Of a DNA stretch of 19,434 bases, positions 1-19,434 are shown piece after piece; the stretch's first letter is position 1; each line of letters starts with the position of its first letter. The notes beneath the pieces are model-generated. The model was not told the DNA's origin. It ran no database searches and was given only the letters and a program-made list of their open reading frames with translations. The position numbers were made by a program, and so were the translations under genes. The stretch lies in the IMG/VR virus record IMGVR_UViG_2778261454_000002, positions 1-19,434 of that record; one strand, written 5' to 3'. This DNA is from a virus. Taxonomy: Duplodnaviria; Heunggongvirae; Uroviricota; Caudoviricetes.

Positions 1-96
1 ATCAACCAAACCAGCGCAATGCCTGAAAAAACTGACGTTCACTGGAGTGGTCGGTTTAGCGTTGCACCAATGCTCGATAGGATGTACCGTTTTTGA
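1..96 (+). pseudogene. dusA: 5' fragment of host tRNA-dihydrouridine synthase A gene, truncated by the prophage junction (window starts inside the ORF)
   Basis: Frame 1 from nt 1 reads INQTSAMPEKTDVHWSGRFSVAPMLD, which matches my recollection of the E. coli DusA N-terminus (...RFSVAPMLDWTDRHCRYF...). After the D codon at 76-78 it diverges (RMYRF) and stops at 94-96. Recalled from memory, not searched. Confidence 0.6.
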
Positions 97-221
97 AAAA
101 CAAGTAGTTATACACTTTGTGGGAGCCTATTGGGAACCCGGTGTTTTCATTTCAAGGTGTAATCCATGCGGGGCATCAGAATGAGATATAATGAGATTTT
201 TAGTGTTCCGCTTGAGAGTCT

Positions 222-758
222 ATGATGCTTACCCTAGACGAGATAGGTCAATCTGTACGTAACAATATCCAGTTGATTATTGATCATGTCGGCTTACCTC
301 TTGCTGTTGGTCCGCTCAGTGATGATGATTACAAGATTCTGTGTGGTGGCTATGGTGAGCTTGAATGGGACTATGCGTTAAGCACCTATGGCAACTCCAG
401 AGAAAAGTATGAGTTCTGCATAAAACTTGTTCAGCAAGGTCGGGTTCAGGGAATACCATCAGGAGCAGCAATTTGTGTTTATGGGGTTGAAGAAAACATC
501 TTTCGTATCCATATGATCGAAAGGTTTTCTAGAGAAGATGAATCTCACCCATTGAAAGGGCGCATGGTTTTACTCACTCTTATGAGTGCTTTTATATTTT
601 GTAAAGCTGTTGAATGTAAAGTTGTCCACATTGTAGAGCCAGTACCAGAACTGGTGCAGTATTACGAGTCTTTTGGTTTCCGCATGGAACAGTGCGGTTA
701 TGTGATGTCTGCAGTCATTGATGAGCTGCAGGATATCTTTCTTAAATTTGCTCAGTAG
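222..758 (+). CDS. Hypothetical protein, possible GNAT-fold acetyltransferase-like; cargo gene
   Basis: 178-aa ORF in opposite orientation to the early-left operon and AT-rich relative to the head genes. C-terminal VVHIVEPVPELVQYYESFGFRM resembles the GNAT beta5-alpha4 motif (..FYEKxGF..). TATAAT-like hexamer near 187-192. Fold call is weak. Confidence 0.5.
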   Translation: MMLTLDEIGQSVRNNIQLIIDHVGLPLAVGPLSDDDYKILCGGYGELEWDYALSTYGNSREKYEFCIKLVQQGRVQGIPSGAAICVYGVEENIFRIHMIERFSREDESHPLKGRMVLLTLMSAFIFCKAVECKVVHIVEPVPELVQYYESFGFRMEQCGYVMSAVIDELQDIFLKFAQ

Positions 759-954
759 GTATAGACGAGAAGGGTCTACAAATTGTAGGATACCCGTCCA
801 GATTACCTTAAAGGTACATCTATGGCAGTCGTTTTGTGCTTAAACTACTAAGAAACGATGTCACCAATCGACATGATCGATTGGCATAAGTTAGCTAAAC
901 AAGCTAGCTTTAAAGAGAGGGTTAGAGACGCCTTTACTGTCTCGGGAGTTTTCT

Positions 955-1128
955 ATGAAAGATCAAAAAGCAACCAAGCAACAGGTTAAGTTCGACACAA
1001 TGAAAGCATTCGCAGGTATGGGTGCTGCTGTTGAAGTTCTGATGAAGGCTGCTCCTAATGCGTTCACTCACGCTACTGTCTCTGGTAAAGAGCAGCAGGG
1101 TAAGCTTCGTCGTCGCAAAGCAGCATGA
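955..1128 (+). CDS. Small hypothetical protein (57 aa, Lys/Ala-rich)
   Basis: ATG preceded by GGAG about 8 nt upstream; ends 20 nt before a strong hairpin with T-run. Below the ORF-track length cutoff. An alternative overlapping small ORF starts near 858 in another frame. Confidence 0.35.
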   Translation: MKDQKATKQQVKFDTMKAFAGMGAAVEVLMKAAPNAFTHATVSGKEQQGKLRRRKAA

Positions 1129-1144
1129 TCATAGCTGGTGCTTT

Positions 1145-1178
1145 TTGAAAACCCGCCTTTAGGCGGGTTTTTTCTTTA
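1145..1178. terminator. Bidirectional rho-independent terminator between convergent genes
   Basis: AAACCCGCC-TTTA-GGCGGGTTT stem-loop followed by TTTTCTTT on the plus strand and by a T-run on the minus strand; sits between the plus ORF ending 1128 and the minus ORF ending 1176. Confidence 0.6.
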
Positions 1179-1457
1179 GTGATGTTCTTTGCCCTTCTGT
1201 TTGCCTGTTCTGACCTGTTCCCACTCGATACGTCCTTCTTCTCGTCTTTTGTCTATGTATTCCGCAAGATCCTGAATATTGATGCAACGTTTTGCTTTTT
1301 GTGATGTGCCGATGCGATATGTTGGAACGGGCAACTTACAAGCGTTTGCTTTTGCTTCTGCCGTGGCTGGACTCATGCCAAAGTACTTTTGGCTAACTGC
1401 TGAGAGTTCAATGTTAGGGGTATTGAATTCAGCCATCAGTAAAAACAAGGTGTTCAT
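1176..1457 (-). CDS. PrtN/AlpA-like small DNA-binding protein (putative excisionase or transcriptional activator)
   Basis: Track ORF 1176..1484; start trimmed to the ATG giving MNTLFLLMAEF..., which has GGAG about 8 nt upstream. Resembles the pyocin-activator PrtN family as recalled. Confidence 0.65.
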   Translation of the reverse strand: MNTLFLLMAEFNTPNIELSAVSQKYFGMSPATAEAKANACKLPVPTYRIGTSQKAKRCINIQDLAEYIDKRREEGRIEWEQVRTGKQKGKEHH

Positions 1458-1493
1458 AATTTTCTCCATCAAAACCGGCTGCACCCGGGAAAA

Positions 1494-2066
1494 TCATAAT
1501 TCTGTGCTGGTGGCAGGAATTAATTTCTGCCAGATAGCGGAAACATATTTTGCCTGATGACGAGCATCAGCCAGGGCGTTGTGCCGTTCGCCATCGAAAG
1601 GCATGTCCATTTTGGGGTCGAATCCGATGAAACGCCCAAGCGTAACGATCGTGCGTACATCGTGGTCATTCCAGTACGCCCACGGGCAGATTTGTCCTGC
1701 TCGCTCGTAAGCTCCACGTAAAATTACGTTGTCGAAGGTGGCCCCGTTACCCCAGACTTTTAAATATTTTGTATTGTCTGCATGCTGATTAATGAAATGG
1801 CTCAGTTCAGATAGGGCAGATGATATCGGCATCGCATCATCAACACAGATTGCTGATCGTGCTTCTGAGCTTTGTCTTAACCACCACAGAATAGTGTCAC
1901 CATCCGGCACCGCTCCCTGCTCCATAGCGCTTTCAAGATTAACAGCGGTGTAAAACTCCTGACCCAGTTCACCGCTTTGCGGATCGAAGAATACGGCACC
2001 AATGGAGACAATAGGGGCATTCGGTTTTTTGCCCATGGACTCAAGGTCGATCATTAAGTTGTTCAC
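1494..2066 (-). CDS. 3'-5' exonuclease, DEDDh/DnaQ-like fold
   Basis: 190 aa. N-terminal MIDLES (D-x-E exo motif), later YWNDHD and C-terminal H..ALADARH motif typical of DEDD exonucleases. Annotated start is GTG; true start may be the ATG 4 codons in. Confidence 0.7.
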   Translation of the reverse strand: MNNLMIDLESMGKKPNAPIVSIGAVFFDPQSGELGQEFYTAVNLESAMEQGAVPDGDTILWWLRQSSEARSAICVDDAMPISSALSELSHFINQHADNTKYLKVWGNGATFDNVILRGAYERAGQICPWAYWNDHDVRTIVTLGRFIGFDPKMDMPFDGERHNALADARHQAKYVSAIWQKLIPATSTEL

Positions 2067-2087
2067 GTTAAATATTCTCCTGTTTGG

Positions 2088-2342
2088 CTATTCAGTAATC
2101 TTGCCGCGACGCATCGCACGTAGGTTTTTCAGGTTTGTTTCCTGCTCTATTTCGGCACATATTTTGCGATACTCATCATGCTCCACTCGTTCAAAATCTT
2201 CGTTAAAGCGTTTGATGCTAATCGTTCTCAGCTCGCCATCATTGCGTTTAATTCGGACCGAGTGATCACTACAGCTATGGATAATTACGGGCCAGTTGCT
2301 ACTGTCCGTGTAGATTTGACCGCGCCGAATCAGGCTAAACAT
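2088..2342 (-). CDS. DUF4222-like small phage protein
   Basis: 84 aa; RRGQIYTDSSNWPVIIHSCSDHSVRIKRNDGELRTISIKRF pattern recalled from lambdoid prophage DUF4222 proteins. Tightly packed in the operon. Confidence 0.6.
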   Translation of the reverse strand: MFSLIRRGQIYTDSSNWPVIIHSCSDHSVRIKRNDGELRTISIKRFNEDFERVEHDEYRKICAEIEQETNLKNLRAMRRGKITE

Positions 2343-2344
2343 TC

Positions 2345-2812
2345 TTATTTTTTCTCCTGCTCTGACTGTTCTTTGATATGCAATCGAGGTTCCCCGTCTT
2401 TCGGCTCAGGCCATTGGCGAACCTTATTTATAGCCAGCTTTTTTATCATTGCCTGGGTAATCTGCTCATCACTGATACCGGCACGACGTTGCGCATCCCA
2501 TAACAGGAATTGCATGTCAGCCCATTCGCTAAGGTCGCCTGGTTCAGCAGCAGCCTCGAGCGCTTCTTTGGAAAGGTGCTTCAGCGGACCAACTGGACCG
2601 ACATCGCCGAAAGTAGCCTGTGACCACGCTGCATGCTCACGGCGTACCAGCTCGCGGGCAATAGCCCCATCAATCACCTTCAATACATCAGCGAGAATGT
2701 AGGCTCTGTTCCCGCCGTTTGAGTATTGGGTATCATGCAGCAGGTGTTCGCGTATCTGGTGCAGGCGATCGAGTGATACAGGACCGTGCGCCGGGTGGTT
2801 GTTAGTTGTCAT
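2345..2812 (-). CDS. DUF550-type dATP/dGTP pyrophosphohydrolase-domain protein
   Basis: 155 aa; GGAGG RBS 8 nt upstream of ATG; sequence matches my memory of lambdoid prophage DUF550 proteins. Confidence 0.65.
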   Translation of the reverse strand: MTTNNHPAHGPVSLDRLHQIREHLLHDTQYSNGGNRAYILADVLKVIDGAIARELVRREHAAWSQATFGDVGPVGPLKHLSKEALEAAAEPGDLSEWADMQFLLWDAQRRAGISDEQITQAMIKKLAINKVRQWPEPKDGEPRLHIKEQSEQEKK

Positions 2813-2825
2813 GGGTTAGTCCTCC

Positions 2826-3134
2826 TTAATCCCATTGCAAAACTGATGCGAAATATGCACCGCGACACGGCGAATCACGAGGATGATGCCAGCCTGAATA
2901 GCCATCCTGACCACCTATTGGGCTAACTTTGTACCAGCACTGATAATAGCGGGCGCTACTTGCAAAATCAGCCGCACCATCCGAGTCGATTACATCTTGG
3001 GACACAGAAGCCTGAATTATTTCCGCTTCCGTATAATCGCCGCGCATAACGATGAATCGCGCATCTTCCGAGCAAAGATAATCACATGAACCGTCATATT
3101 TACCTTTGGCGGTAGGTTTGATTAATTTATCCAT
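2826..3134 (-). CDS. Hypothetical phage protein (Cys-rich, 102 aa)
   Basis: ORF with GGGGGAG RBS upstream; start overlaps the stop of the upstream gene; no family recognised. Confidence 0.5.
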   Translation of the reverse strand: MDKLIKPTAKGKYDGSCDYLCSEDARFIVMRGDYTEAEIIQASVSQDVIDSDGAADFASSARYYQCWYKVSPIGGQDGYSGWHHPRDSPCRGAYFASVLQWD

Positions 3135-3135
3135 C

Positions 3136-3483
3136 TCACTCCCCCTTCACGCCAATGCCAGCGGCTACAAGTTCTGCGGTGTTGGCATCCTGCTGTCGGC
3201 AGTCGCATTCAATCTCAATCGGCTCGCCCCATGGCTGCGTGCCGCCACTATCAGTCATTCCTGTGTCGTTGCATTTCGGGCATGGTTTTTCCTCAAGCGC
3301 ATTCAGCAACATACGGATCTCATGTTGTTGTGCTGCTATCGTTGAGTCTTTGGCTTCCAACTCATCCAGCAGCGCCTCCGCCTCGATGTAAATCACCTGC
3401 CGATCGTGGTCTGCCGGGTCGCTATAGTTGTCCTGCATGAACTGGAATTCTTCACGCAGCGCCTGTTTGTTGAGTGCTGTCAT
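3136..3483 (-). CDS. ead/Ea22-like protein with C-terminal CxxC...CxC zinc-binding motif
   Basis: 115 aa; N-terminal coiled-coil-like segment (ALREEFQFMQ..., EAEALLDELEAK) and PCPKCNDTG...ECDC. Start overlaps the upstream stop (ATGA). Confidence 0.55.
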   Translation of the reverse strand: MTALNKQALREEFQFMQDNYSDPADHDRQVIYIEAEALLDELEAKDSTIAAQQHEIRMLLNALEEKPCPKCNDTGMTDSGGTQPWGEPIEIECDCRQQDANTAELVAAGIGVKGE

Positions 3484-3734
3484 TGGGCTGCTCCTTGTCT
3501 GGCTCTGCTCAAGAGCTGGTTAAACATCATGGTTAGGCTGTTACTGCAACCAAACGGCATATCGTTAATGCGGTATGTTGGAATACCCTTGCGAACACCA
3601 GACTTCACGATCCGACCGGTGCCATAGAGCTGAGATAATGCTCCGGCGACCGCTGGGGTCTTTTTGTTCATACCTTTGGCGATTTCACCGCTGGTGGTAT
3701 TCGGATGAGCCTGGAGATATTCAAATACGGTCAT
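3480..3734 (-). CDS. Small winged-helix/HTH-like protein
   Basis: 84 aa; the SGEIAKGMNKKTPAVAGALSQLYGTGRI segment looks HTH-like; ATGA overlap with the upstream small gene. Confidence 0.5.
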   Translation of the reverse strand: MTVFEYLQAHPNTTSGEIAKGMNKKTPAVAGALSQLYGTGRIVKSGVRKGIPTYRINDMPFGCSNSLTMMFNQLLSRARQGAAQ

Positions 3735-3898
3735 GGCGTTTTATCTTTACGTTCCTGTTCCAGTTGCACCAGAGACTCTTTTAATGCTGCGAACGTAGCG
3801 TCCAGTCTGGTGGCGACTTCGCGCATAAGCGGCGCATGCTTTGGTGGCAATTCAGCAACGGAGGCAAACGCCTCCGCTACGAGTTCTTTTACCTTCAT
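3731..3898 (-). CDS. Small hypothetical protein (55 aa)
   Basis: Not in the ORF track (under 60 aa). ATG overlaps the stop of the HD hydrolase gene and its stop overlaps the next ATG (ATGA at both ends), suggesting translational coupling; predicted MKVKELVAEAFASVAELPPKHAPLMREVATRLDATFAALKESLVQLEQERKDKTP. Confidence 0.35.
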   Translation of the reverse strand: MKVKELVAEAFASVAELPPKHAPLMREVATRLDATFAALKESLVQLEQERKDKTP

Positions 3899-4434
3899 GC
3901 GGCGCATTGGCGCTGCTCCATCAACTCGTTAAAGCGATTGATGAACATGCCGTATGACTGGCCAGGACGAACTGGGTTGATAATGAATAAATCCGTTGGG
4001 ACAACTCCCTCGAGGCATGGCCAAATGGAACCTTCGTCAATCTCAAAATCGCGGCGTTCGCTGGCGAGCATCACCAGATCGGCATATTTCACTGTTGGGT
4101 GTTGCTCCGTCGGTAGGCCAAATTTCTGGCGAATAGCAGCGTCTACGCGAGCTTCGATCACCTGGTAATCCGGTAACAGGCGCTTAAGCGGTGAGGGAAT
4201 ATCTTGCAGGTAGGCTTCGGCGGCATCATGAAGCAGTGCTTCTAAGGCAAACTCCTGCGGAACGAGATGGCTGGTTAAAACGCTATGCTGGCCGACGCTG
4301 TAAAACTCAGGAAGATGCCCTGCAAAGCGGCAGATATGAGACAACGCGGTAGCAATATCCTCGATCACGATATCGTCCTGTTGGATATCGAGGTAATTAA
4401 AATGTTTGCCGGATAATGTCTGAATGTAGCTCAT
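3895..4434 (-). CDS. HD-domain phosphohydrolase (YfbR-like 5'-deoxynucleotidase family)
   Basis: Track ORF 3895..4461 begins at GTG; start trimmed to ATG (MSYIQTL...) with GGAG 6 nt upstream. H..HD motif region ALLHDAAEAYLQDIPSPLK resembles YfbR HDASEVLTGDLPTPVK. Confidence 0.7.
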   Translation of the reverse strand: MSYIQTLSGKHFNYLDIQQDDIVIEDIATALSHICRFAGHLPEFYSVGQHSVLTSHLVPQEFALEALLHDAAEAYLQDIPSPLKRLLPDYQVIEARVDAAIRQKFGLPTEQHPTVKYADLVMLASERRDFEIDEGSIWPCLEGVVPTDLFIINPVRPGQSYGMFINRFNELMEQRQCAA

Positions 4435-4542
4435 GGTTTTCTCCATATTGGCGCGCTGCACCGCGCCATTAAATTAATGAATTGCTGAATTTAGCGTGCA
4501 GCAACCCAACCCATGCTTATGGGGGTAATTGTTGCCTGGTGT

Positions 4543-5460
4543 TTATCGCTTGGCTTCGCCGCCGAGAGAGGTTGTTAATCCGTTAATGAGAGAGATAAGC
4601 TCGCCGGTCATCAGAACAAAGTCAGCGTCGAACCTCTGAGCCGCATCCTCACGGTCGATATCGTCGTTTTGTTCTGTAATCTCATTAGAGAACTTAAGGC
4701 GTTTGATGCTGCCGTCATCGCAAAGAACGAACTGAATGCGCTGTTGCCAGTCGATAGACAGCTTTGTAACTACTTTGCCAGCTTCCAGATGCACATGAAT
4801 TTCGTCACTGACCAGAGTCTGTTTTTTAAAGCGTCCAATACCGCCATCTTCAAGAATAGCTTTCAGTTCGGCTTCATCACCCAGGCCAAAGCCAGCAGGC
4901 GCACTACCGGAACGAACCCATTCGGTCATAGTTAGTTCGATCGGCGTTTCCATAGTCAGCGGTACCACCGGGAGAGAACCGAGAGTTTTACGAAGCAGGG
5001 CCAGTGAGTCTTCGGCACGTTTAGCGCTGGCTGCATCAACCATGATCAGACCGTCGGTGACGTTGATCCACAAACTAACAGTCGAGTTTTTGGAGAACGC
5101 CCGAGGAAGCAGGGAGTGCAACACTTCATCACGCAGCGAATCTTTCTCAGTTTTTTTGAGGCGACGCCCCTGATCGGATTCCAGACGCGACACACGCTTG
5201 CGCAGTTCTTCAGCAATGACAGGAGATGGCAGTATTTTTTCTTCCCGGCGAATAACCAACAACACTTGATTATTGACAGTGTGATGCAAGCGATCTGACA
5301 GCTGACCAAGTGGTGATACCCAACCGGTTTTTGCCATATCCTGGCTACCGCATGGAGTGAAGCGAAATAGTTCAAGCTGCTGTTCCAGCTCTTCCTGGTT
5401 GATGGTGAAATCGCGACTAATGCGATACACCAACATATTTTTGAAAAACGGATTGTTCAT
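4543..5460 (-). CDS. rdgC: Recombination-associated protein RdgC homolog
   Basis: 305 aa, alignable along its full length to E. coli RdgC as recalled ([85 protein letters not shown]). GAGGAA RBS upstream. Confidence 0.85.
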
Positions 5461-5772
5461 TCTCGGTTCCTCAACGCCTCTGCACCGGCGCTAAAAAGTT
5501 AGTTTCTCCATACACAACAGAGAAGGGCACCTGCATTGGTCGGCGGCTTGCAGAGACCGCTTTCTTTTTGCCCGGGTGGATTGGGTTATGAGCCCGTCGC
5601 CCGGTGATGCCCTTTTCTGTTGTGCCCTGAAAAAGGCTGGCGGTTACCGGAAATACACGGGAAAACACCGGGCCGCCAGAACAGGGAGTTACTTGTTATT
5701 GCTTTAGCCTGCTTTTAACCACATCAGGCGCGGTGGTATCTTGGTGTTCTCACACAACCAAGAGGGATGTTT

Positions 5773-5970
5773 ATGGGCGCTTTTGATAACCAGGAAATTA
5801 CGTTACCCGCATGCCCTAAGTGCGGCACTAAGACGAAGAAGAAAATCGCTTGGCTCAAGTCGAACAAAAGTTTCACTTGTCGATGTGGAGCTACTATCAA
5901 TGTCAACAGCAGCCAGCTTACTTCCGAAATCAGGAAGGTTGAGGACAAGCTGAAGAAGCTCTTTAAATAG
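5773..5970 (+). CDS. Small zinc-ribbon protein (CPKCG...CRCG), 65 aa
   Basis: Track ORF 5767..5970; ATG at 5773 sits about 7 nt after AGAGGGA; followed by a hairpin with T-run. Overlaps antisense with the 3' half of the minus ORF 5803..6168. Confidence 0.45.
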   Translation: MGAFDNQEITLPACPKCGTKTKKKIAWLKSNKSFTCRCGATINVNSSQLTSEIRKVEDKLKKLFK

Positions 5971-6168
5971 TTTTTTATCGACTGATATTATTTCGTTATC
6001 AGAGGTTGGTTTTTCAGCCTCTGATTTTTTAGTCAGGATCATTTTTTCTACACATGTGACTACGCATTCCGAACAGATGGCAGGTTCGTCCTTACCACCT
6101 TTTGCGACGATCTTTATCGCTCCCAGTTCGGTTGCTCCGCAAAATGAGCATGTGAATAAATGATTCAT
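5803..6168 (-). CDS. ClpX-type C4 zinc-finger small protein; first gene of the leftward operon; 3' extent uncertain
   Basis: ATG at 6168 with GGTGGTAGAGG RBS (track start 6186 is TTG). N-terminal CSFCG...ICSECV resembles the ClpX N-terminal zinc finger. The downstream two-thirds is antisense to the plus ORF and may not be coding. Confidence 0.4.
   Translation of the reverse strand: MNHLFTCSFCGATELGAIKIVAKGGKDEPAICSECVVTCVEKMILTKKSEAEKPTSDNEIISVDKKLFKELLQLVLNLPDFGSKLAAVDIDSSSTSTSETFVRLEPSDFLLRLSAALRACG
5999..6030 (+). terminator. Rho-independent terminator-like hairpin
   Basis: TCAGAGG ... CCTCTGA stem with a 12-nt loop followed by TTTTTT, 29 nt after the stop at 5968-5970. Confidence 0.5.
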
Positions 6169-6279
6169 GTAAACCTCTACCACCAACCTAAGTTTTCTGT
6201 CAGCGAATCATCCGGTTATTCATATGCCACCGGCGGCTACTTCGTGGGCGTCCTGCCTGTTCGTTACTGCAACATCTTT

Positions 6280-6325
6280 AAGTTGTAATCTAGTTGTTGT
6301 TTTGGTTGTTGTCAACAACTTTATG
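6280..6325 (-). promoter_or_regulatory. Candidate pL promoter with OL-like operator palindrome
   Basis: On the minus strand, TTGACA (plus 6310-6315), a 17-nt spacer and TAGATT (plus 6287-6292). The -35 lies inside GTTGTTG-N-CAACAAC (about 6305-6319). Placement right of cI matches lambda pL/OL logic. Confidence 0.4.
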
Positions 6326-6378
6326 TGGTTTTGACGGATGTGAAATGAGGGCAAGGGTTATCAAAAAAGGAGGTTGTA

Positions 6379-6482
6379 TGGACGATGCGCTTTTAATTAC
6401 ACAAGGGACACTTTCCTTCCGTGATTGGAAACTCTCAAATCACGGGAGGAAGATTGAAAAGGCGGGTAATAATGGTAACTAA
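6379..6482 (+). CDS. Possible small peptide (34 aa); low confidence
   Basis: ATG 5 nt after a near-perfect AAGGAGG; contains an 8-bp-stem hairpin (CCGTGATT...AATCACGG, about 6419-6446). Part of the longer TTG-start track ORF 6294..6482. Confidence 0.2.
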
Positions 6483-6509
6483 ATTTCTGAAGGAAGGTTT
6501 TTTGATGCA

Positions 6510-7196
6510 TTACCAAGTGCGCGATGACCAGAATACTCTACCTATAACGTGAATTCTTGAACGCCTATCTTCGAAGGTGAGTATTTCATCTGGATACTCA
6601 TCTTTATTGAAACTTCTTAGAATCAGACCACCGTCAGGTAAATTGATCAATATTTTAACTCTAAGTAATACGCCATCACGTATGGCATAAAGATCCCCAT
6701 CACGAATAGGAACCGTTTGGGAAACATCAACAGCAACAAAATCTCCATTGTTAAGTACAGGTAGTAAACTATTGCCCCAAATTTTTACGATCTTTGCATT
6801 GGAGACACATACACCAGCTTTTCTTAAATCAATCCTTCTTAGCGGGAACCAGTCTACAGTTGATTCAACTATTTCAGCCAAACATCCATTACCCGCTGAT
6901 AACTCGACATCTAGGACTGGAATGTTTGCAAAAATGTCAGGATCTAATGCTGTACTTTCAGCCTCCTTTACAACAAGGTCTGGGAAAGACGCGTTATCCT
7001 CAATGCCCAATTGCAACCACTTTTGAGAAACCCCTAACACTTTAGCAATCTCTTTAATTTTCCGAGGCTGTTGAGTTTCTCCATTCTCGATTTTCGCTAC
7101 GGATTGTTGTGAAAGCCCAATTTTTTCAGCTAGTTGCGCCTGACTCATTCCTGCTTTTTCTCTTTCGCTTTTTAGTCTTTCTGCCAATGTTTTCAC
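6510..7196 (-). CDS. cI: CI-type prophage repressor (N-terminal XRE HTH, C-terminal S24 LexA-like autopeptidase domain)
   Basis: 228 aa; HTH MSQAQLAEKIGLSQQSVAKIENG; C-terminal domain with Ser in IWGNSLLP and Lys in LLRVK. Divergent from cro; GTG start. Confidence 0.9.
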   Translation of the reverse strand: MKTLAERLKSEREKAGMSQAQLAEKIGLSQQSVAKIENGETQQPRKIKEIAKVLGVSQKWLQLGIEDNASFPDLVVKEAESTALDPDIFANIPVLDVELSAGNGCLAEIVESTVDWFPLRRIDLRKAGVCVSNAKIVKIWGNSLLPVLNNGDFVAVDVSQTVPIRDGDLYAIRDGVLLRVKILINLPDGGLILRSFNKDEYPDEILTFEDRRSRIHVIGRVFWSSRTW

Positions 7197-7199
7197 AAC

Positions 7200-7333
7200 A
7201 TATCCCCCTCGTTTTTATTGAGGTTACAACTTTATGTTTTAGCTTTCCAACATCTAAAAGTTGTGATAAAAGTTGTTGTAGTTGTATAATCGAAGTTATC
7301 AACAACTTTACTACTTACAGATAGGAGAAAGCT
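7200..7333. promoter_or_regulatory. OR-like operator cluster with PR (and presumably PRM)
   Basis: Repeated ACAACTTTA / TAAAAGTTGT and GTTGTTG / CAACAAC half-sites at about 7226-7238, 7254-7279 and 7299-7312. Plus-strand TATAAT at about 7285-7290 with TTGTGA about 18 nt upstream; AGGAGA RBS before cro ATG 7334. Confidence 0.6.
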
Positions 7334-7582
7334 ATGACACCTGAGCAATTAGCCTTATCAGAGGCAATCGCTCTGGCTGGTGGTCAATCAGAATTGGCTC
7401 GGAAGCTCACAGCCAGCAGTGGTCGTTTAGTAAAGCAACAACATGTCTGGAACTGGTTGAACAGAGAAAAGCGTCCCCCTGCAAAACTCTCGATATTTAT
7501 TGAAATGACCACTGGCGTATCAAAAGAAAAATTACGTCCAGATATTTTTCAAAAGATTAAAGACTTATCAGATGGAAAGTAA
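7334..7582 (+). CDS. cro: Cro-like HTH regulator (YdaS-like family)
   Basis: 82 aa; first gene rightward of OR, divergent from cI; HTH-like GGQSELARKL; YdaS-family resemblance is from memory. Confidence 0.7.
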   Translation: MTPEQLALSEAIALAGGQSELARKLTASSGRLVKQQHVWNWLNREKRPPAKLSIFIEMTTGVSKEKLRPDIFQKIKDLSDGK

Positions 7583-8156
7583 CCACAGTTTTAAGGAGAT
7601 AGCCGTGGGTAAGCATCACTGGAAAGTAGAAAAACAGCCTGAGTGGTACGTGAAAGCTGTCAGAAAAACTATCGCGGCGTTGCCGGGTGGTTACGCTGAA
7701 GCTGCTGACTGGCTGGATGTAACAGAGAACGCATTATTTAACCGCCTTCGTGCCGATGGCGATCAGATTTTCCCGCTGGGATGGGCAATGGTTTTGCAAC
7801 GTGCTGGTGGAACTCACTTCATTGCTGACGCTGTGGCGCAGTCTGCAAATGGCGTCTTTGTGTCTCTTCCTGACGTCGAGGATGTGGACAACGCCGATAT
7901 TAACAAGCGCCTGCTGGAAGTCATTGAACAGATTGGCAGTTATTCCAGACAGATTCGTTCGGCAATCGAAGACGGTGTGGTGGAACCGCATGAGAAGACA
8001 GCAATTAACGACGAGCTGTATCTCTCAATTTCGAAGCTGCAGGAGCATGCAGCACTGGTCTACAAAATCTTTTGCATTTCAGAAAGTAATGACGCCCGCG
8101 AGTGTGCAGCTCCGGGCGCCGTGGCGTGTCGTGACTGTGGAGAAACTAACGCATGA
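7572..8156 (+). CDS. CII/YdaT-like phage regulatory protein
   Basis: 194 aa directly after cro with an 11-nt overlap; position and size fit CII-type regulators (CP76/YdaT-like) of lambdoid prophages. Family assignment is from memory and uncertain. Confidence 0.55.
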
Positions 8157-8491
8157 ACAGTTTAACAACACACTACCGTCGCTCGCAACTGATTGCGCTT
8201 CCTGTACCGGGTGGAAAAGCGAAGGTGGAGTATTGCTATGCAGTTAATGTACCAGGTGACAGGGAAATTGTAACCCACAGCTTTGCTGAGTGGGCTGTGG
8301 GTGATTTCAACCGGCAGAAGGAGACAGTCCTTTGCGACAAGTTAACCGCTGGTTCAAAGATCACTACGGAGTGCCCGTCAGAGTCATTCGTTGGGAACCG
8401 GAAACACAACGGGTTATCTACCTCCGCGAAGGCTATGAGTATGAGTGCTTCAGCCCGCTCGAACAGTTTCGTCGTAAATTCAGGGAAATAG
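8153..8491 (+). CDS. Hypothetical protein; reading frame probably disrupted in its 3' half
   Basis: ATGA overlap with the upstream stop. N-terminal 60 aa look protein-like, but the C-terminal third is Ser-rich low complexity, while an overlapping Met-less frame (8305..8511) encodes a protein-like sequence. Confidence 0.4.
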
Positions 8492-8500
8492 AGGTCGGTC

Positions 8501-9136
8501 ATGAGCACTAAATTAACCGGCTATGTATGGGATGGTTGCGCAGCGTCAGGCATGAAATTATCCAGCGTGGCAATTATGGCCCGCCTGGCTGATTTCAGTA
8601 ATGACGAAGGTGTGTGCTGGCCATCAATTGAAACCATTGCCCGCCAGATTGGCGCGGGGATGAGTACCGTCAGAACGGCTATCGCACGGCTGGAAGCAGA
8701 AGGCTGGTTAACGCGTAAGGCGCGTCGCCAGGGTATCTGCATCATCGTCTGCCTGTCATGGGCTGTTAATCATTACCGTGATAACGCCATCGCCTATAAA
8801 GAACAGCGCGATAAAGCCACGTCTATCATCGCTGATATGCAGAAGCGTCAACGTGATGTAGCAGAACTTGACGCCAGATACACAAAGGAGCTTGCTGATG
8901 CTAATGCGACTATCGAAAGTCTCCGTGATGATGTTTCTGCTGGGCGTAAGCGCCTGCAAGTCGCCGCCACCTGTGCAAAGTCAACGACCGGAGCCAGCAG
9001 CATGGGCGATGGAGAAAGCCCAGGACTTACAGCAGATGCTGAACTCAATTATTACCGTCTCCGAAGTGGAATCGACAAGATAACCGCGCAGGTTAACTAC
9101 CTGCAGGAATACATCAGGACGCAATGCCTGAAATAA
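8501..9136 (+). CDS. Chimeric ORF: replication-initiator-like HTH N-terminal domain (about 78 aa) fused in frame to the C-terminal part of i-spanin Rz
   Basis: N-terminal [34 protein letters not shown] is an HTH typical of phage O-like initiators. From [19 protein letters not shown]... onward it is colinear with lambda Rz ([20 protein letters not shown]...[19 protein letters not shown]...LRDDVAAGRRRL...). Junction near nt 8735. Confidence 0.7.
8904..9083 (+). CDS. rz1: o-spanin Rz1 lipoprotein, embedded in the +1 frame of Rz
   Basis: Inside track ORF 8868..9083; [18 protein letters not shown] has a lipobox (LLGVSAC) followed by a Pro-rich segment ([16 protein letters not shown]), as in lambda Rz1. 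Start codon chosen by me. Confidence 0.7.
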
Positions 9137-9159
9137 TTTTTTTGCAAATCACAAAGTCA

Positions 9160-9235
9160 ATTTAATGAGCCTCGCGATGCGGGGCTTTTTGCAATAAATG
9201 CGTACCGCAACGCATGTTTTTTACACCGAACCTGC
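9160..9235 (+). terminator. Two tandem hairpin/T-run elements downstream of Rz
   Basis: AGCCTCGC-GAT-GCGGGGCT followed by TTTTT, and ATGCG-TACCGCAA-CGCAT followed by GTTTTTT. Coordinates approximate. Confidence 0.4.
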
Positions 9236-9337
9236 CCCTTTGGAATGGGCCTTTGAGGATACCAGTTAGTGCTGGCGAGCCTCGGTGGGCTGGTTTCCTG
9301 TGCGGCAAAGGTTCATTTCAAAGAGTAGGTACACGCT

Positions 9338-9835
9338 ATGAAATCATTAACCCTCTTCAATCAACCAATTCGTATCGGTGAAGATGGCATGATCTGCCTC
9401 ACTGATATGTGGAAAGCCAGTGGTAAAAGTGAATCTGAATCGCCTTACCACTACCTGCGAAACAAGCAGACCAAAGAGTTCTTAGCCGAGCTGGAGAAAA
9501 ACCACGAATCTGTGGTTTTTACTGAGCGCGGTGTACACGGTGGAACATATGGCGGGAAGTTTGTTGCTTACGATTATGCGGCTTGGTTAAACCCCGGGTT
9601 CAAGTACGCGGCCTATAAAGTCCTCGATGACTACTTCACAGGAGAACTTCAGCATCGCAACAGCTTAAGTGCGCAGCTCAACATGAAATGTCATGAGTTT
9701 GACCAGAAGAAAGACATGGCGAGTTTCTGCGGACAAGGGCTGGCGGCATGGCGCTATACGAAGCCAGTGTTGGTCGCTGAGATTAACTCCCTGGCTAACC
9801 AGCTGCAGATTACGATCCCCGGGCTTCCGGGATGA
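9338..9835 (+). CDS. KilA-N domain protein
   Basis: 165 aa; N-terminal pattern (FNQPIRIGEDGMICLTDMWKASGK...) matches the KilA-N DNA-binding domain as recalled. Confidence 0.65.
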   Translation: MKSLTLFNQPIRIGEDGMICLTDMWKASGKSESESPYHYLRNKQTKEFLAELEKNHESVVFTERGVHGGTYGGKFVAYDYAAWLNPGFKYAAYKVLDDYFTGELQHRNSLSAQLNMKCHEFDQKKDMASFCGQGLAAWRYTKPVLVAEINSLANQLQITIPGLPG

Positions 9836-10089
9836 GTGATCGTGTCATTGAATGCGCCTCCAGAGCGGGGCGCGACTTCTCAGAGTTCATGAAAGGCGAG
9901 AAGGGCATGATGGAAGCATTGGCCTCGGTGGATGAGTTTGGCGAGCAGCTGCGCCTCAACGGCTGTGTCAATCATCACTTTGTTAGCTACATGATGCGGA
10001 ACTCGATCATGCAGGCATTCATGGACATGGCAAAAGCCGAGAGGAAAGAAGAGCGCCGGCGTAAGCGAGCGGAAGCAAAAGCGAAGTAG
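9832..10089 (+). CDS. Hypothetical protein (85 aa, basic C-terminus)
   Basis: ATGA overlap with the KilA-N stop; C-terminal KAERKEERRRKRAEAKAK; followed by a hairpin (AAGCCCA...TGGGCTT). Confidence 0.5.
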   Translation: MSDRVIECASRAGRDFSEFMKGEKGMMEALASVDEFGEQLRLNGCVNHHFVSYMMRNSIMQAFMDMAKAERKEERRRKRAEAKAK

Positions 10090-10183
10090 CCATTCCAAAG
10101 CCCATCTACGGGTGGGCTTGATAATGGTATGTATTGTCTTCGGGAAGGCTTTGTAGATGTTAAGCGATTATTAAGAGGCAATC

Positions 10184-10342
10184 ATGACTTTAGCTGAACG
10201 TGTAAAGAGAATTGAGAGCGAATTAAAAGACATTAAATCGCAACTCAATTCTGGTACCGATTCTAGGAAAACAGCAAAAGCAATGCCCTTATCCAGTCTT
10301 GCAAAAGAGGGAGGTATCCCTGGGGGGTTAGTTAAAAAATGT
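10184..10342 (+). CDS. Small hypothetical protein (52 aa)
   Basis: Not in the track; AAGAGG RBS 6 nt upstream of ATG; predicted MTLAERVKRIESELKDIKSQLNSGTDSRKTAKAMPLSSLAKEGGIPGGLVKKC; its 3' end overlaps the convergent protease gene. Confidence 0.3.
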
Positions 10343-10792
10343 TAACTCAAATACTTGATTGGAAAAATCCATCGTAAGGGCGCCCATTTTAATTAGTTGC
10401 ATTCCGAAAACGACTTGGAATTTTCTCCCGTTACTTACCAATGGCACTGAAGTCAATTCTGTTGAAAAAACTCTTTCGTCCTCAGTGAACGATATTACCG
10501 CATGCCGAACTGTAGTTTCTATTGTTGAGGTGGCTCCGCTCACAGTTGTTTTTTCCGCGATTGGGAGTTTTAAATCGTCAGCAAAGTCTGAATCCACATA
10601 GCAAAGATCTGCTCCGGTATCTATAAGTGCGTAGGCACCAGCCTTCAATCCATTTGGTTTATAAACGTTTATATCTTTTGAGCTACTTGGCCATACTGTC
10701 AATGGAACTACGGGAATTGCATGCTCCGTGGGGGTATCTGATACCGATCCATCAATAGGGGAAATAAACTTGATTTTTACTTTGGTGATCAT
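10328..10792 (-). CDS. Retropepsin-like (clan AA) aspartic protease
   Basis: 154 aa; catalytic-type motif ALIDTGADLCYVD (D-T-G-A) and C-terminal GMQLIKMGALTMDF resembling the retropepsin dimerisation strand; AAGGA RBS. AT-rich, opposite orientation to its neighbours, with its own upstream intergenic region. Confidence 0.65.
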   Translation of the reverse strand: MITKVKIKFISPIDGSVSDTPTEHAIPVVPLTVWPSSSKDINVYKPNGLKAGAYALIDTGADLCYVDSDFADDLKLPIAEKTTVSGATSTIETTVRHAVISFTEDERVFSTELTSVPLVSNGRKFQVVFGMQLIKMGALTMDFSNQVFELTFFN

Positions 10793-11051
10793 CCTTTTTC
10801 CTTCGAAGAGTTATTCAGCCATTCCTCCTCTTTGCGTGAATCAGTGTCCCACCACTGACGGGCTGAATGCTTACCTTACCCGGGGTTAAAACGAAGTAAT
10901 ACCCTGATATTCAGACAGTAACCGCATCGCGCGGCATTTATGCGCATCGCACGCGCACATCAAAGAAAGTCTTTCAGCTGTGAGCCTGGGCAAACCGTTA
11001 ACTTTCGGCGGCTTTGCCGTGCGACAGGCTCACGCCTAAAAGGAAATACCC

Positions 11052-11216
11052 ATGAAATATTTATCGCTACAACAGGCGATGCTCGGCATGCGAGTAATCA
11101 TGACCGATGATGGCCTCATTTTGAAAAGCCCGGCAGGTAGTGCGCATTACGATCTGAAAGGTCGACGCCATACAGTTTGGGGGATGCTTCTTTCTTCCCG
11201 GAGCATATGCGTGTGA
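11052..11216 (+). CDS. Small hypothetical protein (54 aa)
   Basis: Not in the track; ATG about 8 nt after AAGGA; overlaps the next ORF in a different frame. Confidence 0.3.
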   Translation: MKYLSLQQAMLGMRVIMTDDGLILKSPAGSAHYDLKGRRHTVWGMLLSSRSICV

Positions 11217-11725
11217 AGGATAAGCGTAAGCCTAATCTCAGCCGTATTGTTTTTGAGAAAGACTGCACGACTATTTATGGTGCTGATGGAAAACCACAAG
11301 CACGCATAGGTAACTGGGATAAACCGGGAGAACCAAAAGGCTGGCGAATCCAAAAAGACGGCGCGTATATAACGTCTTATGAATTCAATCCTAAGAATAA
11401 TTTTAATGAGAACGGCCAGCAGTATGCAGCTGGAATGGTCGTTGGTATTGATGTGCAAAAGGGCAATGCAGCTGTTAATGCCAATCAATTTAAGTCTCCG
11501 ATAGAAGCACCAGATCCAATAACCGAGAGCATTTTAGAAAATGCACTTTCAACCCATGCTGCTAATAAAAACATCCAGGCCCTCATCAACCAGCAAGCAA
11601 AGGAGATCGTGGAAATGAAACAGGGCTTTGCCGAGTCTGTAAAAAAGGAGCTGGCTAAGCATCTTCGCCATGGTGGATTGATGTGGTCTGCATTAGTCAA
11701 GCGAAGTAGACGTTTAGACGTCTAA
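11207..11725 (+). CDS. Hypothetical protein (172 aa from ATG; track ORF begins at TTG 11177)
   Basis: Long ORF with no family recognised; the last gene before cos, where lambda carries bor and accessory ORFs. Confidence 0.5.
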   Translation: MRVKDKRKPNLSRIVFEKDCTTIYGADGKPQARIGNWDKPGEPKGWRIQKDGAYITSYEFNPKNNFNENGQQYAAGMVVGIDVQKGNAAVNANQFKSPIEAPDPITESILENALSTHAANKNIQALINQQAKEIVEMKQGFAESVKKELAKHLRHGGLMWSALVKRSRRLDV

Positions 11726-11789
11726 ATAACAACAGGCACTCAAACACAATTGATAACCATTATCGTTTGGGTCCTTTCCGGCAATCCGC

Positions 11790-11815
11790 CCTGTTACGGG
11801 GCGGCGTCCGCGCAG
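11790..11815. other. cos site: cosN nicking region with predicted 12-nt cohesive end GGGCGGCGTCCG (about 11799-11810), cosB downstream
   Basis: GTTACGGGGCGGCGTCCGCGCAGATTCTCGCTATATATGAAAATTTT is nearly identical to lambda cosN (GTTACGGGGCGGCGACCTCGCGGGTTTTCGCTATTTATGAAAATTTT), about 80 nt upstream of Nu1. Confidence 0.7.
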
Positions 11816-11886
11816 ATTCTCGCTATATATGAAAATTTTGGACATGAGGTTGTTGTTTAATCATTGCTGAAAACGGGTGAGGGAAT

Positions 11887-12393
11887 ATGGCCGTGCTATT
11901 GAATAAATCTGATATGGCTTCCTCGCTGGGAATATCCGTCCAGGCCTTTGATAAATGGGGTGTCCAGCCAGTAGAAAAGAGAGGGCGAGAAGTCTTCTTT
12001 GACGTTCGTTCAGTCGTTGATAACCGCATCGAACACCAGAGTCGAAAACTACAACCATCGCCGGGAGAAGACGATGATAGTGTCAATATTGATTATGAAC
12101 GTTGGCGTTTAACTCGTGCTAATGCGGATGCGGCTGAGCTGGCCAATGAGAAAAAGCGTCGCGAGGTCGTAGAGACTGCGTTTTGTACCTTCGTGTTATC
12201 CAGAATTGCCGCTGAAATATCCAGTATTCTGGATGGCATACCCCTTTCGATGCAGCGCCGGTTCCCTGAGCTGGAAAATCGGCATATCGAGTTCCTGAAA
12301 GGGGACGTAATAAAGGCAATGAATAAGGCTGCGGCGCTGGATGAACGGATTCCGGGGTTGTTGAATGATTATATCGACCAGTCAGGTAGCTAA
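11887..12393 (+). CDS. Nu1: Terminase small subunit Nu1
   Basis: 168 aa; C-terminal two-thirds almost identical to lambda Nu1 (VVETAFCTFVLSRIA.EI.SILDG.PLS.QRRFPELENRH..FLK...IKAMNKAAALDE.IPGLL); GAGGGA RBS. Confidence 0.9.
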   Translation: MAVLLNKSDMASSLGISVQAFDKWGVQPVEKRGREVFFDVRSVVDNRIEHQSRKLQPSPGEDDDSVNIDYERWRLTRANADAAELANEKKRREVVETAFCTFVLSRIAAEISSILDGIPLSMQRRFPELENRHIEFLKGDVIKAMNKAAALDERIPGLLNDYIDQSGS

Positions 12394-14287
12394 TCTGCGA
12401 ACAGCGGTAAAAGCTGGTCTGAAATCACTATACCGCCCGGAACCCATGACAGCTGTCGAATGGGCCGATGCGCATTATTACCTTCCGAAGGAATCCGCTT
12501 ATCAGGAAGGGCGCTGGGAAACATTGCCATTTCAGCGCGCGATCATGAATGCGATGGGCAGCGACTATATTCGCATTGTTAACGTAATTAAGTCGGCGCG
12601 AGTAGGCTATTCGAAAATGCTACTCGGCGTCATTGCTTATTTCATCGAGCACAAACAACGTAATGAGTTGCTGTGGCTGCCGACCGACGGCGACGCAGAT
12701 AATTTCATGAAGTCACACGTTGAACCTACGATCCGTGATGTTCCCTCGCTGTTATCACTTGCTCCCTGGTATGGGAAAAAGCACAGGGATAACACGCTGT
12801 CGATGAAGCGATTTACCAATGGCCGTGGCTTCTGGTGCCTGGGTGGTAAATCGGCTAAGAACTATCGTGAAAAATCAGTCGATGTCGTTGGATACGATGA
12901 GCTGGCTGCGTTTGACGCTGATATTGAGAAAGAGGGTTCGCCGACCTTCCTGGGGGATAAGCGTATCGAGGGTTCTGTTTGGCCCAAATCCATACGCGGT
13001 TCGACACCGAAATTGCGTGGAACGTGTCAGATTGAGCGGGCAGCAAAAGAGTCCGGACATTTTATGCGATTTCATGTCGCATGTCCGCACTGTGGTGAAG
13101 AGCAGTATCTTAAATTTGGTGACCGGGATACGCCTTTCGGCTTCAAATGGGAGCCTGAGCAGGCCGAAACGGTCTACTACCTCTGCGAGCATAATGCTTG
13201 TGTCATTAAGCAACATGAACTGGACTTTTCCAACGCTCGTTATATCTGCGAATTGACCGGAATATGGACGCGCGACGGGCTTCGCTGGTTCTCATCGTCT
13301 AATGCTGAAATTGATCCACCTGAAAGCGTAACTTTCCACATCTGGACAGCTTATAGCCCGTTTACCACTTGGGTACAGATAGTTAAAGACTGGTTCAAAA
13401 CGAAAGGCGACACGGGTAAACGCAAGACATTTGTGAACACCACCCTGGGCGAAACGTGGGAAGCGAAAATCGGTGATCGCCCCGATGCAGACGTTTTAGC
13501 AGAGCGTAAAGAGCACTTTGATGCTGCAGTACCTGAGCGAGTGGCGTATCTGACAGCGGGGATTGACTCCCAGCTCGACCGTTACGAAATGCGTGTGTGG
13601 GGATGGGGGCCGGGTGAGGAAAGCTGGCTTATCGACAGGCAAATCATCATGGGTCGCCATGATGATGAGTCAACGCTTGCCCGTGTGGATGAGGCGATTA
13701 ACAAGACATATAAACGCCGGAACGGCGTAGAAATGTTTATATCCCGTATCTGCTGGGATATCGGTGGTATTGACCCCACTATCGTTTACAACCGCTCGAA
13801 AAAACACGGTCTGTTTCGTGTGATCCCGATAAAGGGTGCGTCGGTTTATGGAAAGCCGGTGGCGAACATGCCCCGCAAACGCAACAAAAACGGTGTTTAT
13901 CTGACAGAAGTGGGTACTGATACCGCGAAAGAGCAGATTTATAACCGCTTCACGCTGACCGTTGAAGGTGATGAGCCTCTGGCCGGTGCCGTTCACTTCC
14001 CCAATAACCCCGATATTTATGATCTTTCAGAGGCGCAGCAGCTGACCGCCGAAGAACTGGTCGAAAAGTGGGTTGATGGTAAGAGAAAAATCATATGGGA
14101 CAGCAAAAAAAGGCGAAATGAGGCTCTCGACTGCTTTGTTTACGCACTGGCGGCGCTTCGTATCAGCATATCCCGCTGGCAGCTTAACCTTGATTCACTT
14201 CTTGCCAGCCTGCTGGAGGAAGAAGGCACCCGTAACAATAACAAGACCCTGGCGGATTACGCGCGGGCATTGTCTGGAGAGGAATAA
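12365..14287 (+). CDS. A: Terminase large subunit A
   Basis: 640 aa versus 641 in lambda; high identity along the full length (for example [40 protein letters not shown]); overlaps Nu1 as in lambda. Confidence 0.95.
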
Positions 14288-14493
14288 TGGCAACACAGAC
14301 TGAACTGGATGCCGCGCGCGCTGCGTTACATGACCTGATGATGGGGAAACGAGTGGCGACGGTACAGAAAGATGGCCGAAGAGTGGAATTTACAGCTACC
14401 TCAGTTACCGATCTCAAAAAGTATATTGCTGACCTTGAATCTCAGGTTGGTACCACATCACGACGCCAGGGGCCTGCAAGGTTTTACGTATGA
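14287..14493 (+). CDS. W: Head-tail joining protein W
   Basis: 68 aa, near-identical to lambda gpW ([41 protein letters not shown]). Confidence 0.9.
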
Positions 14494-16082
14494 AAATACC
14501 ATCTTTAGTGGGTCCTGACGGGAAAACATCCCTTCGGGAATACGCGGGGTATCATGGCGGCGGCGGAGGGTTTGGTGGTCAGTTGCGGGGCTGGAATCCA
14601 CCAAGCGAAAGTGCTGATGCGGCTCTTCTGCCTAACTTCTCGCGCGGAAATGCCCGTGCTGACGATCTGGTCAGAAATAATGGCTATGCGGCAAACGCCG
14701 TGCAGCTCCACCAGGACCACATCGTCGGGTCATTTTTCAGACTCAGCTATCGACCGAGCTGGCGCTATCTTGGCATCAATGAGGAGGATTCACGCGCATT
14801 TTCGCGGGATGTAGAAGCCGCCTGGAACGAGTATGCCGAGGATGATTTTTGCGGGATTGATGCTGAGCGCAAGCGAACCTTTACGATGATGATCCGTGAA
14901 GGTGTGGCCATGCATGCGTTTAACGGTGAATTATGCATGCAGGCGACCTGGGACAGCGATTCAACGCGTCTTTTCCGTACTCAGTTCAAAATGGTCAGTC
15001 CGAAGCGCGTCAGTAATCCAAACAATATCGGTGATACCCGGAACTGTCGCGCTGGGGTAAAAATCAATAACAGTGGTGCTGCGCTGGGATATTACGTCAG
15101 CGACGACGGATACCCCGGCTGGATGTCACAGAACTGGACCTATATTCCGCGCGAGCTTCCTGGTGGCCGCCCCTCGTTTATCCATGTATTCGAACCGATG
15201 GAGGATGGACAGACCCGTGGGGCTAATGCGTTTTACAGCGTGATGGAGCAGATGAAAATGCTCGATACCCTGCAAAACACCCAGCTCCAGAGCGCTATCG
15301 TAAAGGCCATGTATGCAGCCACCATCGAGAGTGAACTGGATACCCAATCGGCGATGGATTTTATCCTCGGTGCGGATAATAAAGAGCAGCAGAGCAAACT
15401 GACAGGCTGGCTCGGCGAAATGGCAGCCTATTACTCCGCTGCGCCGGTTCGCCTGGGCGGGGCAAGGGTCCCACACCTGTTGCCGGGGGATTCTCTTAAC
15501 CTTCAGTCGGCGCAGGATACCGATAACGGCTATTCAACGTTCGAACAATCCCTGCTGCGTTATATTGCTGCAGGGCTGGGTGTGTCGTATGAGCAGCTTT
15601 CACGAAACTATTCGCAGATGAGCTACTCGACCGCACGCGCAAGTGCTAACGAGTCCTGGGTGTACTTTATGGGGCGTCGCAAGTTTGTTGCGTCCCGACA
15701 GGCCTGCCAGATGTTTCTTTGCTGGCTGGAAGAAGCGATTGCCAGAAGGGTGGTCACGCTTCCTTCGAAAGCCCGTTTCAGTTTCCAGGAGGCTCGAACA
15801 GCATGGGGGAACGCCAGCTGGATTGGCTCTGGCCGAATGGCTATTGACGGGCTGAAAGAGGTGCAGGAAGCCGTCATGCTTATTGAGGCTGGTCTCAGCA
15901 CGTATGAGAAAGAGTGCGCCAAACGCGGTGATGATTATCAGGAGATTTTTGCCCAGCAGGTCCGGGAAACAATGGAGCGTCGTGCTGCGGGTCTGAAACC
16001 ACCGGCATGGGCCGCTGCCGCTTTTGAGGCTGGACTGAAAAAATCAAACGAGGAGGAGCAAGATGGCGCACGAGCTGCGTAA
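14490..16082 (+). CDS. B: Portal protein B
   Basis: 530 aa versus 533 in lambda; very high identity ([54 protein letters not shown]). Confidence 0.95.
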
Positions 16083-17406: not shown

Positions 17407-17415
17407 GAGGCTATC

Positions 17416-17748
17416 ATGGCAATTACTGAAGTTTTCACACATAACCAGCCGCTCGGTAACAGCGACCCGGCGCACACTGCGTATGGTCCTGGCGAACTGA
17501 CAGCTTCCACTCCAGCCATGACGCCGCTCATGCTGGATGCCACTTCTGGCAAGCTGGCCGTCTGGGATGGTGCTCATGCTGGCGCGGCAATGGGCATCCT
17601 GGCTGTAACCGCAGACCAGAACAGCGCGGAACTGGCATTTTACAAATCTGGCTCTTTCCGTATTGAAGATGTCCTCTGGCCATCTGCCGTCACCGACGAC
17701 AACATTAAACGTAACGCGTTCGCCGGTACTGCAATCAGCATCGTTTAA
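17416..17748 (+). CDS. D: Head decoration protein D
   Basis: 110 aa, same length as lambda gpD, high identity ([27 protein letters not shown]....KL..WDG...GAA.GILAV.ADQ). Confidence 0.9.
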
Positions 17749-17777
17749 TCCGCATTTCTACAACCATCATCATTCAT

Positions 17778-17803
17778 AAAAGCCGCCTGCGCGGCTTTTT
17801 TTA
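17778..17803 (+). terminator. Hairpin with T-run between D and E (possible attenuator or mRNA stabiliser)
   Basis: AGCCGC-CTGC-GCGGCT followed by TTTTTTT, 13 nt before the E start codon. Confidence 0.4.
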
Positions 17804-17815
17804 CGGGAAATATCT

Positions 17816-18841: not shown

Positions 18842-18886
18842 CTTCCCCCAGTGGCCCTGTCGGGCCACCTTTCTGGAGTATTTCCC

Positions 18887-19294: not shown

Positions 19295-19304
19295 AGGGGG
19301 CCAC

Positions 19305-19434
19305 ATGGCTGATTTCGATAATCTCTTTGACGAGGCCATGTCGCGAGCTGATAGCGCTATCCGGCCTCAAAGTGTGAAGTGGTCGTTTTCATGGAGAAAG
19401 CATAATGGCCGAATTTGGCGCGATGATATTAATG
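19305..19434 (+). CDS. FII: Head completion protein FII (5' partial, runs off window)
   Basis: MADFDNLFDEAMSRADSAIR matches the lambda FII N-terminus MADFDNLFDAAIARADETIR; the sequence after about residue 21 diverges. Confidence 0.65.
   Translation, partial: MADFDNLFDEAMSRADSAIRPQSVKWSFSWRKHNGRIWRDDIN

Follow-up and report, generated by a model that had tools for sequence, protein, structure and literature searches.

A Putative attL Site of a Lambda-Like Prophage in the 5′ End of Escherichia coli dusA

Introduction

The stretch of DNA analysed here, hereafter the window, is 19,434 nucleotides long and opens inside the gene dusA, after which it continues as phage-like sequence. This raises the question of how a host gene and a phage came to be joined at this point, and of what became of dusA in the process. 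The 5′ end of dusA is the target of the elements with a dusA-associated integrase (DAI elements), which have semiconserved att sites and donate a replacement 5′ end to the gene (PMC4482086). On the basis of sequence comparison, we assign the start of the window to the attL of a lambda-like prophage in the 5′ end of E. coli dusA. As an explanation of the whole, we consider it very likely that window 1–96 is the attL of an mEp460-like lambdoid prophage, which entered the gene site-specifically by means of a DAI tyrosine integrase. The window makes up the entire draft contig NODD01000048.1 (assembly GCA_002518125.1), and the far end of the element itself is therefore outside view; the evidence on that end was obtained from related prophages.

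The Junction in dusA

The junction was searched for in a set of 5426 complete E. coli genomes. Window positions 1–77 were found to be 100% identical (E 3e-30) to codons 10–35 of the uninterrupted dusA of K-12 MG1655, and the same full match was obtained in thousands of other genomes. Across the 5426 complete genomes, the match with uninterrupted dusA always ended at nt 77, and the alignment of the window start to dusA did not continue past that position. This bears out the initial annotation, made from the letters of the window, which had placed its opening in a reading frame for the N-terminal region of DusA. The breakpoint corresponds to nt 104 of dusA.

In frame 1, window 1–120 reads INQTSAMPEKTDVHWSGRFSVAPMLD, followed by RMYRF and a stop at 94–96, exactly where the frame had been said to end. 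The initial annotation had further claimed that the homology stops after the Asp codon at 76–78, which is exact at the protein level; at the nucleotide level, identity ends at 77, as the window carries T at nt 78 where the host carries C, and the Asp codon remains as the synonymous GAT. The truncated 5′ stub of the host dusA accordingly occupies positions 1–78 of the plus strand (codons 10–35 of the 345-aa K-12-type allele, the gene beginning to the left of the contig), and the phage-encoded tail of the stub reading frame, RMYRF and a TGA stop, occupies positions 79–96 of the same strand. This tail is identical in the attP of a 43.7-kb circular record from strain CT01 (the CT01 circle) and in the attP of phage mEp460.

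The identical junction, that is, the exact attL with the same cargo, was present in approximately 356 of the 5426 complete genomes. In genomes that share it, including O68:H12 97.3 and LWY6, the PGAP annotation gives a partial dusA pseudogene ending at the position of window nt 78. A search of GTDB species-representative genomes with the exact 47-nt attL pattern returned no match. When the whole window was compared with the complete E. coli genomes, no match had a coverage of at least 80%, the best being 69%. The sequence to the right of the junction had been described as phage-like, and this was upheld, since nt 4–2065 are 94% identical to mEp460 (NC_019716) and the open reading frames (ORFs) match phage families.

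Attachment Sites and Core

Four attachment sites were aligned: the attB of K-12, the attL of the window, the attR of E. coli O68:H12 97.3 and the attP of the CT01 circle, which is the same as the attP of mEp460. The only stretch identical across all four sites was the 8-bp ATGCTCGA (window 70–77), which forms codons 33–35 of dusA. In the window, the base preceding this core (nt 69, A) is of the host type and the base following it (nt 78, T) is of the phage type, which places the strand exchange within the core.

The core falls inside the attB published for phage 1720a-02 (PMC6328086). Experiments on that phage demonstrated its integration 100 bp into dusA, a 7-base core common to attL, attR, attB and attP, and its excision with regeneration of attP; the phage also bears its own dusA′ (PMC6328086). 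The dusA 5′ end had been named in the initial annotation as a documented target of an integrase family, and the breakpoint does lie at the DAI site, ∼100 nt into dusA (PMC4482086, PMC6328086).

The Far End in Related Prophages

The initial annotation had noted that no integrase lies next to the junction and had expected it at the far end of the element unless lost, with a replacement dusA 5′ end supplied at the opposite junction. The first point held, as tblastn searches with three integrase types and an invertase gave nothing significant in the window. For the second, four relatives were inspected (O68:H12 97.3, LWY6, the CT01 circle and mEp460), and all four had an integrase beside dusA or dusA′. 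The prophages of 97.3 (46 kb) and LWY6 (39 kb) begin with the dusA stub, the same two cargo ORFs as in the window and the PrtN gene, and continue through the phage body to a far end consisting of DinI, a 365-aa tyrosine recombinase and a divergent full-length dusA of 345 aa. The first 104 nt of this full-length dusA are phage-derived. The replacement 5′ end was thereby seen at the opposite junction in both genomes, with a matching attP in the CT01 circle and in mEp460. In the latter two, the order is int, dusA′ fragment, cargo and PrtN, given in full for mEp460 as int, dusA′ 5′ fragment, 177-aa ORF, 57-aa ORF, PrtN ‘excisionase’ and exonuclease.

The integrase of the relatives matches PF00589, and that of 97.3 is 98% identical to the integrase of mEp460, which was listed among the DAI homologues by Farrugia et al. 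(2015; PMC4482086). Rebuilt DusA and K-12 DusA share 97% identity, with nine of the ten substitutions located within the donated N-terminus (first 30 residues). The integrase together with the phage-type dusA 5′ end was found in 728 of the 5426 complete genomes. We infer that the integrase and attR of the element in the window probably lie on another contig.

Related sequence is also present in two plasmid records. The CT01 circle is deposited as NZ_CP081794.1 (‘plasmid unnamed3’) and is a complete phage genome with attP. It carries a Mu-like contractile-tail module and is 99.3% identical to window 1–6241, and the CT01 chromosome also bears the integrated junction. This record probably represents phage DNA, either excised or replicating, that was assembled as a plasmid. 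The 373-kb plasmid NZ_CP135245.1 of strain OHT76-1 has an annotated dusA with a 5′ end that matches window 1–77 at 83% identity (positions 347101–347177). This phage-type end may belong to a dusA-specific element or to a plasmid-borne copy of dusA.

Proposed Mechanism of Insertion

In the proposed mechanism, the DAI integrase would exchange strands inside ATGCTCGA, which is common to attB and attP, the attP being situated within a copy of the dusA 5′ end that the phage carries. The original promoter and the first 35 codons would be left behind as a dead stub that ends five codons into phage DNA. At the far end, a phage promoter and a 104-nt dusA 5′ fragment would become fused in frame to the remainder of dusA, and DusA would therefore still be made. 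The integrase would be located at this far end, divergent from the rebuilt dusA, with its RdfN partner at the attL end (1176–1457).

Three observations weigh against this explanation. The integrase, attR and rebuilt dusA of the element itself are outside the window; the interval from the stub to the first cargo ORF (225–758) contains no consensus sigma-70 promoter; and a deletion that joins an O-like gene to an Rz gene, described below, marks a decaying prophage, so that the integrase could have been lost as well.

Genes Adjoining the Attachment Site

The slot between attL and the PrtN gene (window 97–1175) holds two cargo ORFs on the plus strand. The first, at 225–758, lies in the same orientation as the dusA stub and encodes 177 aa (phrog_4350, function unknown). 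It had no match in Pfam, NCBIfam or PADLOC, and its single-sequence AlphaFold model was poor (pLDDT 51). The second, at 955–1128, is a small ORF of 57 aa (phrog_2741, function unknown). In the lysogen, we infer, transcription of both would start at the promoter of the host dusA. The cargo ORFs are separated from the excisionase gene by a strong hairpin with an 11-bp stem and T/A runs on both sides (1147–1172), which looks like a bidirectional terminator, to judge from its sequence.

The cargo of this slot varies among related dusA prophages; elsewhere it consists of a YafO toxin with a 179-aa ORF, or of a Panacea-domain protein with a 128-aa ORF. This suggests that the slot is a hot spot for toxin–antitoxin or defence genes.

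The PrtN-family ORF follows on the minus strand at 1176–1457 (PF11112, E 4e-23; phrog_1300 ‘excisionase’, E 8e-40). Its homologue in mEp460 is annotated as an excisionase, and a sequence search found no relative of it in the PDB. By homology, we assign this ORF as the recombination directionality factor RdfN of the dusA-specific elements. RdfN is needed for the excision of the dusA-specific IMEVchUSA3 (Durand et al., 2021; PMC8409611). The assignments are of use for annotation: the 35-codon dusA fragment should be recorded as a stub and not as a gene, the PrtN-like ORF as an excisionase, and the place to look for the integrase is the far end, beside a full-length dusA whose N-terminus is of the phage type.

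The Prophage Body and a Private Deletion

Positions 78–19434 hold the left arm of a mosaic lambdoid prophage, in which the attL-proximal cargo is followed by the early-left region, immunity, a deletion scar, and then the terminase and head genes. The early-left operon opens with a gene for a 3′-5′ exonuclease (Rv2179c-like; 1494–2066, minus strand; PF16473, E 9e-74). The immunity region comprises a CI-like repressor with a helix-turn-helix (HTH) and an S24 LexA-type peptidase (6510–7196, minus strand) and, on the plus strand, Cro-like (YdaS) and CII-like (CP76) regulators (7334–8156). The small (Nu1) and large (gpA) subunits of a lambda-type terminase are encoded at 11887–14287 of the plus strand, and the head genes for gpW, portal, S49 protease, decoration protein and major capsid protein at 14287–18841 of the same strand, with 90% identity to 97.3. 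The canonical gene order of a lambdoid temperate phage was found in the CI/Cro/CII immunity region, the early-left operon, the Nu1/gpA terminase, the portal and the capsid. Searches with the CI-like protein and the KilA-N protein yielded mosaic relatives only, and the window contained no tRNA gene and no Rfam family.

One further ORF, of 154 aa (10328–10792, minus strand), gave weak matches to retropepsin-like aspartyl proteases (PF13650, E 1e-5). Its neighbours, the KilA-N gene on one side and the terminase genes on the other, lie on the opposite strand.

In place of complete replication, Q antiterminator and lysis modules, the window carries a chimeric ORF at 8501–9136 of the plus strand, in which the N-terminus of an O-like replication initiator (first ∼100 residues) continues in frame into the C-terminal part of an Rz spanin (last ∼130 residues). 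In other genomes each half has its match in a different gene, and the two matches overlap by 17 nt at the breakpoint (8731–8747). The O-Rz junction was spanned by none of the 5426 complete E. coli genomes, and the chimeric protein is known from contig NODD01000048.1 alone. Judged from these comparisons, the chimera is the scar of an internal in-frame deletion private to this prophage, which removed the remaining replication genes together with the nin region, Q, holin and endolysin. Because of this deletion, the prophage is probably unable to replicate, to switch on its late genes or to lyse the cell; it is probably defective, and it might still be able to excise.

Alternative Explanations

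The private loss of replication, Q and lysis functions, together with a far end that lies outside the contig, is also what would be seen if the junction were the dead scar of a decaying remnant, whose integrase or attR is gone, which could no longer excise, and which perhaps leaves dusA truncated in this strain. We regard this as unlikely. All four inspected relatives retain the integrase beside dusA, and the 728 genomes with integrase and attR are not fewer than the ∼356 with this attL type, for which other cargo variants exist. The start of the contig also bears on the point. In short-read assemblers, 77 is a common largest k-mer length, and in a de Bruijn graph a contig that leaves a branching vertex begins with the k-mer of that vertex. 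The host-derived part of the contig is exactly 77 nt long, and we therefore suspect that the dusA 77-mer had a second continuation in the reads, which would argue against a dead scar. This continuation could be attB from cured cells, or a copy of dusA identical over at least 77 nt.

A second alternative is polylysogeny, in which the 77-nt ‘host’ segment would itself be the donated 5′ end of another DAI element, placed in tandem to the left. The left flank is outside the window, and the K-12-type end is classed with the dusA 5′ ends of the element type, both of which would suit such an arrangement. Against it, thousands of prophage-free genomes carry an allele that is 100% identical to these 77 nt, and the upstream neighbour in genomes with the same junction is a host DUF2713 gene and not an integrase. 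We consider a tandem element highly improbable.

A chimeric assembly that joined dusA to an unrelated prophage, conceivable in that the window is a short-read draft contig, was rejected as having a negligible probability, since the identical junction occurs in hundreds of complete genomes and a dusA pseudogene is annotated beside the same phage ORFs in complete genomes.

Two Alleles of the dusA 5′ End

The dusA gene of E. coli occurs with two different 5′ ends. The K-12-type allele, found in ∼4380 of the 5426 complete genomes, encodes a protein of 345 aa that starts MHGNSEMQKINQTS and is preceded by DUF2713 genes. The short (B2-type) allele, found in 1043 of the 5426, adjoins zur and encodes a protein of 331 aa that starts MPAESHTVYPAYRFSIAP; its carriers include ATCC 25922, the type strain ATCC 11775 and the ExPEC strain XM. 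Downstream of the att core the two alleles are 96–97% identical, and on its upstream side they are unrelated, the homology beginning 9 nt before the core (before ATGCT).

The B2-type end, with its promoter and upstream region, is 78% identical to Enterobacter, and the short allele is therefore taken as the vertically inherited one. The K-12-type end shows 83–84% identity to the donated end of the mEp460 type, measured between the core and a point 3 nt upstream of the ATG, as against 33–38% identity to the vertical alleles. It starts with ATGCAC exactly 96 nt before the core, as do the DAI-adjoining ends in Mixta, Pectobacterium and Morganella. In a sample of 80 species, all four loci with a full-length DAI upstream carried an ‘MHxN’ type end, and this type of end was also found at many loci without an integrase. 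The end of Morganella morganii, which has the integrase, can be compared with that of M. psychrotolerans, which is nearly identical and has none. The same phage family now enters short-allele hosts, where it leaves a short-allele stub next to zur.

From these comparisons, we consider it probable that the K-12-type dusA 5′ end, which genomes carry together with the upstream yjbL/yjbM DUF2713 segment, is the fossil of an older DAI insertion; a fossil attR would be the simplest reading of this end. A tblastn search upstream of K-12 dusA found no integrase remnant, and DUF2713 was absent from the other Enterobacterales loci sampled. We found no mention of the K-12-type end as a fossil of DAI insertion in the literature searched, and this side result may be new. 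As a separate observation, the DUF2713 (yjbL/yjbM-like) gene upstream of the K-12-type dusA is unusually divergent, with 50–95% protein identity between E. coli strains.

If the fossil reading is true, the window would represent a second-generation insertion into a gene end that had already been donated by a phage, and the N-terminus of the reference E. coli DusA would have its origin in a mobile element. Repeated DAI insertions would then permanently rewrite the 5′ end and promoter of dusA, a conserved tRNA-modification gene.

Comparison With Known Systems

The junction described here is already known, in that it is an ordinary member of the described DAI system and an insertion type that is well documented. 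Among the DAI islands, 60 of 94 carry a prtN homologue and about half are prophages (PMC4482086). The window shows two features of this family, namely an insertion at the conserved site with a truncated stub and a PrtN-family RdfN gene. It does not differ in kind from the DAI elements and adds one more E. coli instance, with the integrase located outside the window.

The closest comparison is with mEp460, which shares with the window prophage the 94%-identical attL-proximal segment and lambda-type head genes. The two differ in state, as mEp460 is a free phage with an attP and a phage-type dusA end, whereas the window holds an integrated attL with a host-type end. They differ also in content, the middle of the window prophage being mosaic and carrying the O-Rz deletion.

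The Stx2 phage 1720a-02 of Citrobacter rodentium has 91%-identical segments in common with window 70–2065. That phage bears stx2 and is inducible, whereas the visible part of the window prophage contains no stx, and Q and the lysis genes are missing from it. IMEVchUSA3 resembles the family of the window in being dusA-specific and in having int and a PrtN-family recombination directionality factor on opposite sides of attP (PMC8409611). It is, however, not a phage but a mobilizable island under the control of the IncC plasmid activator AcaCD, and its RdfN is only distantly related to that of the window.
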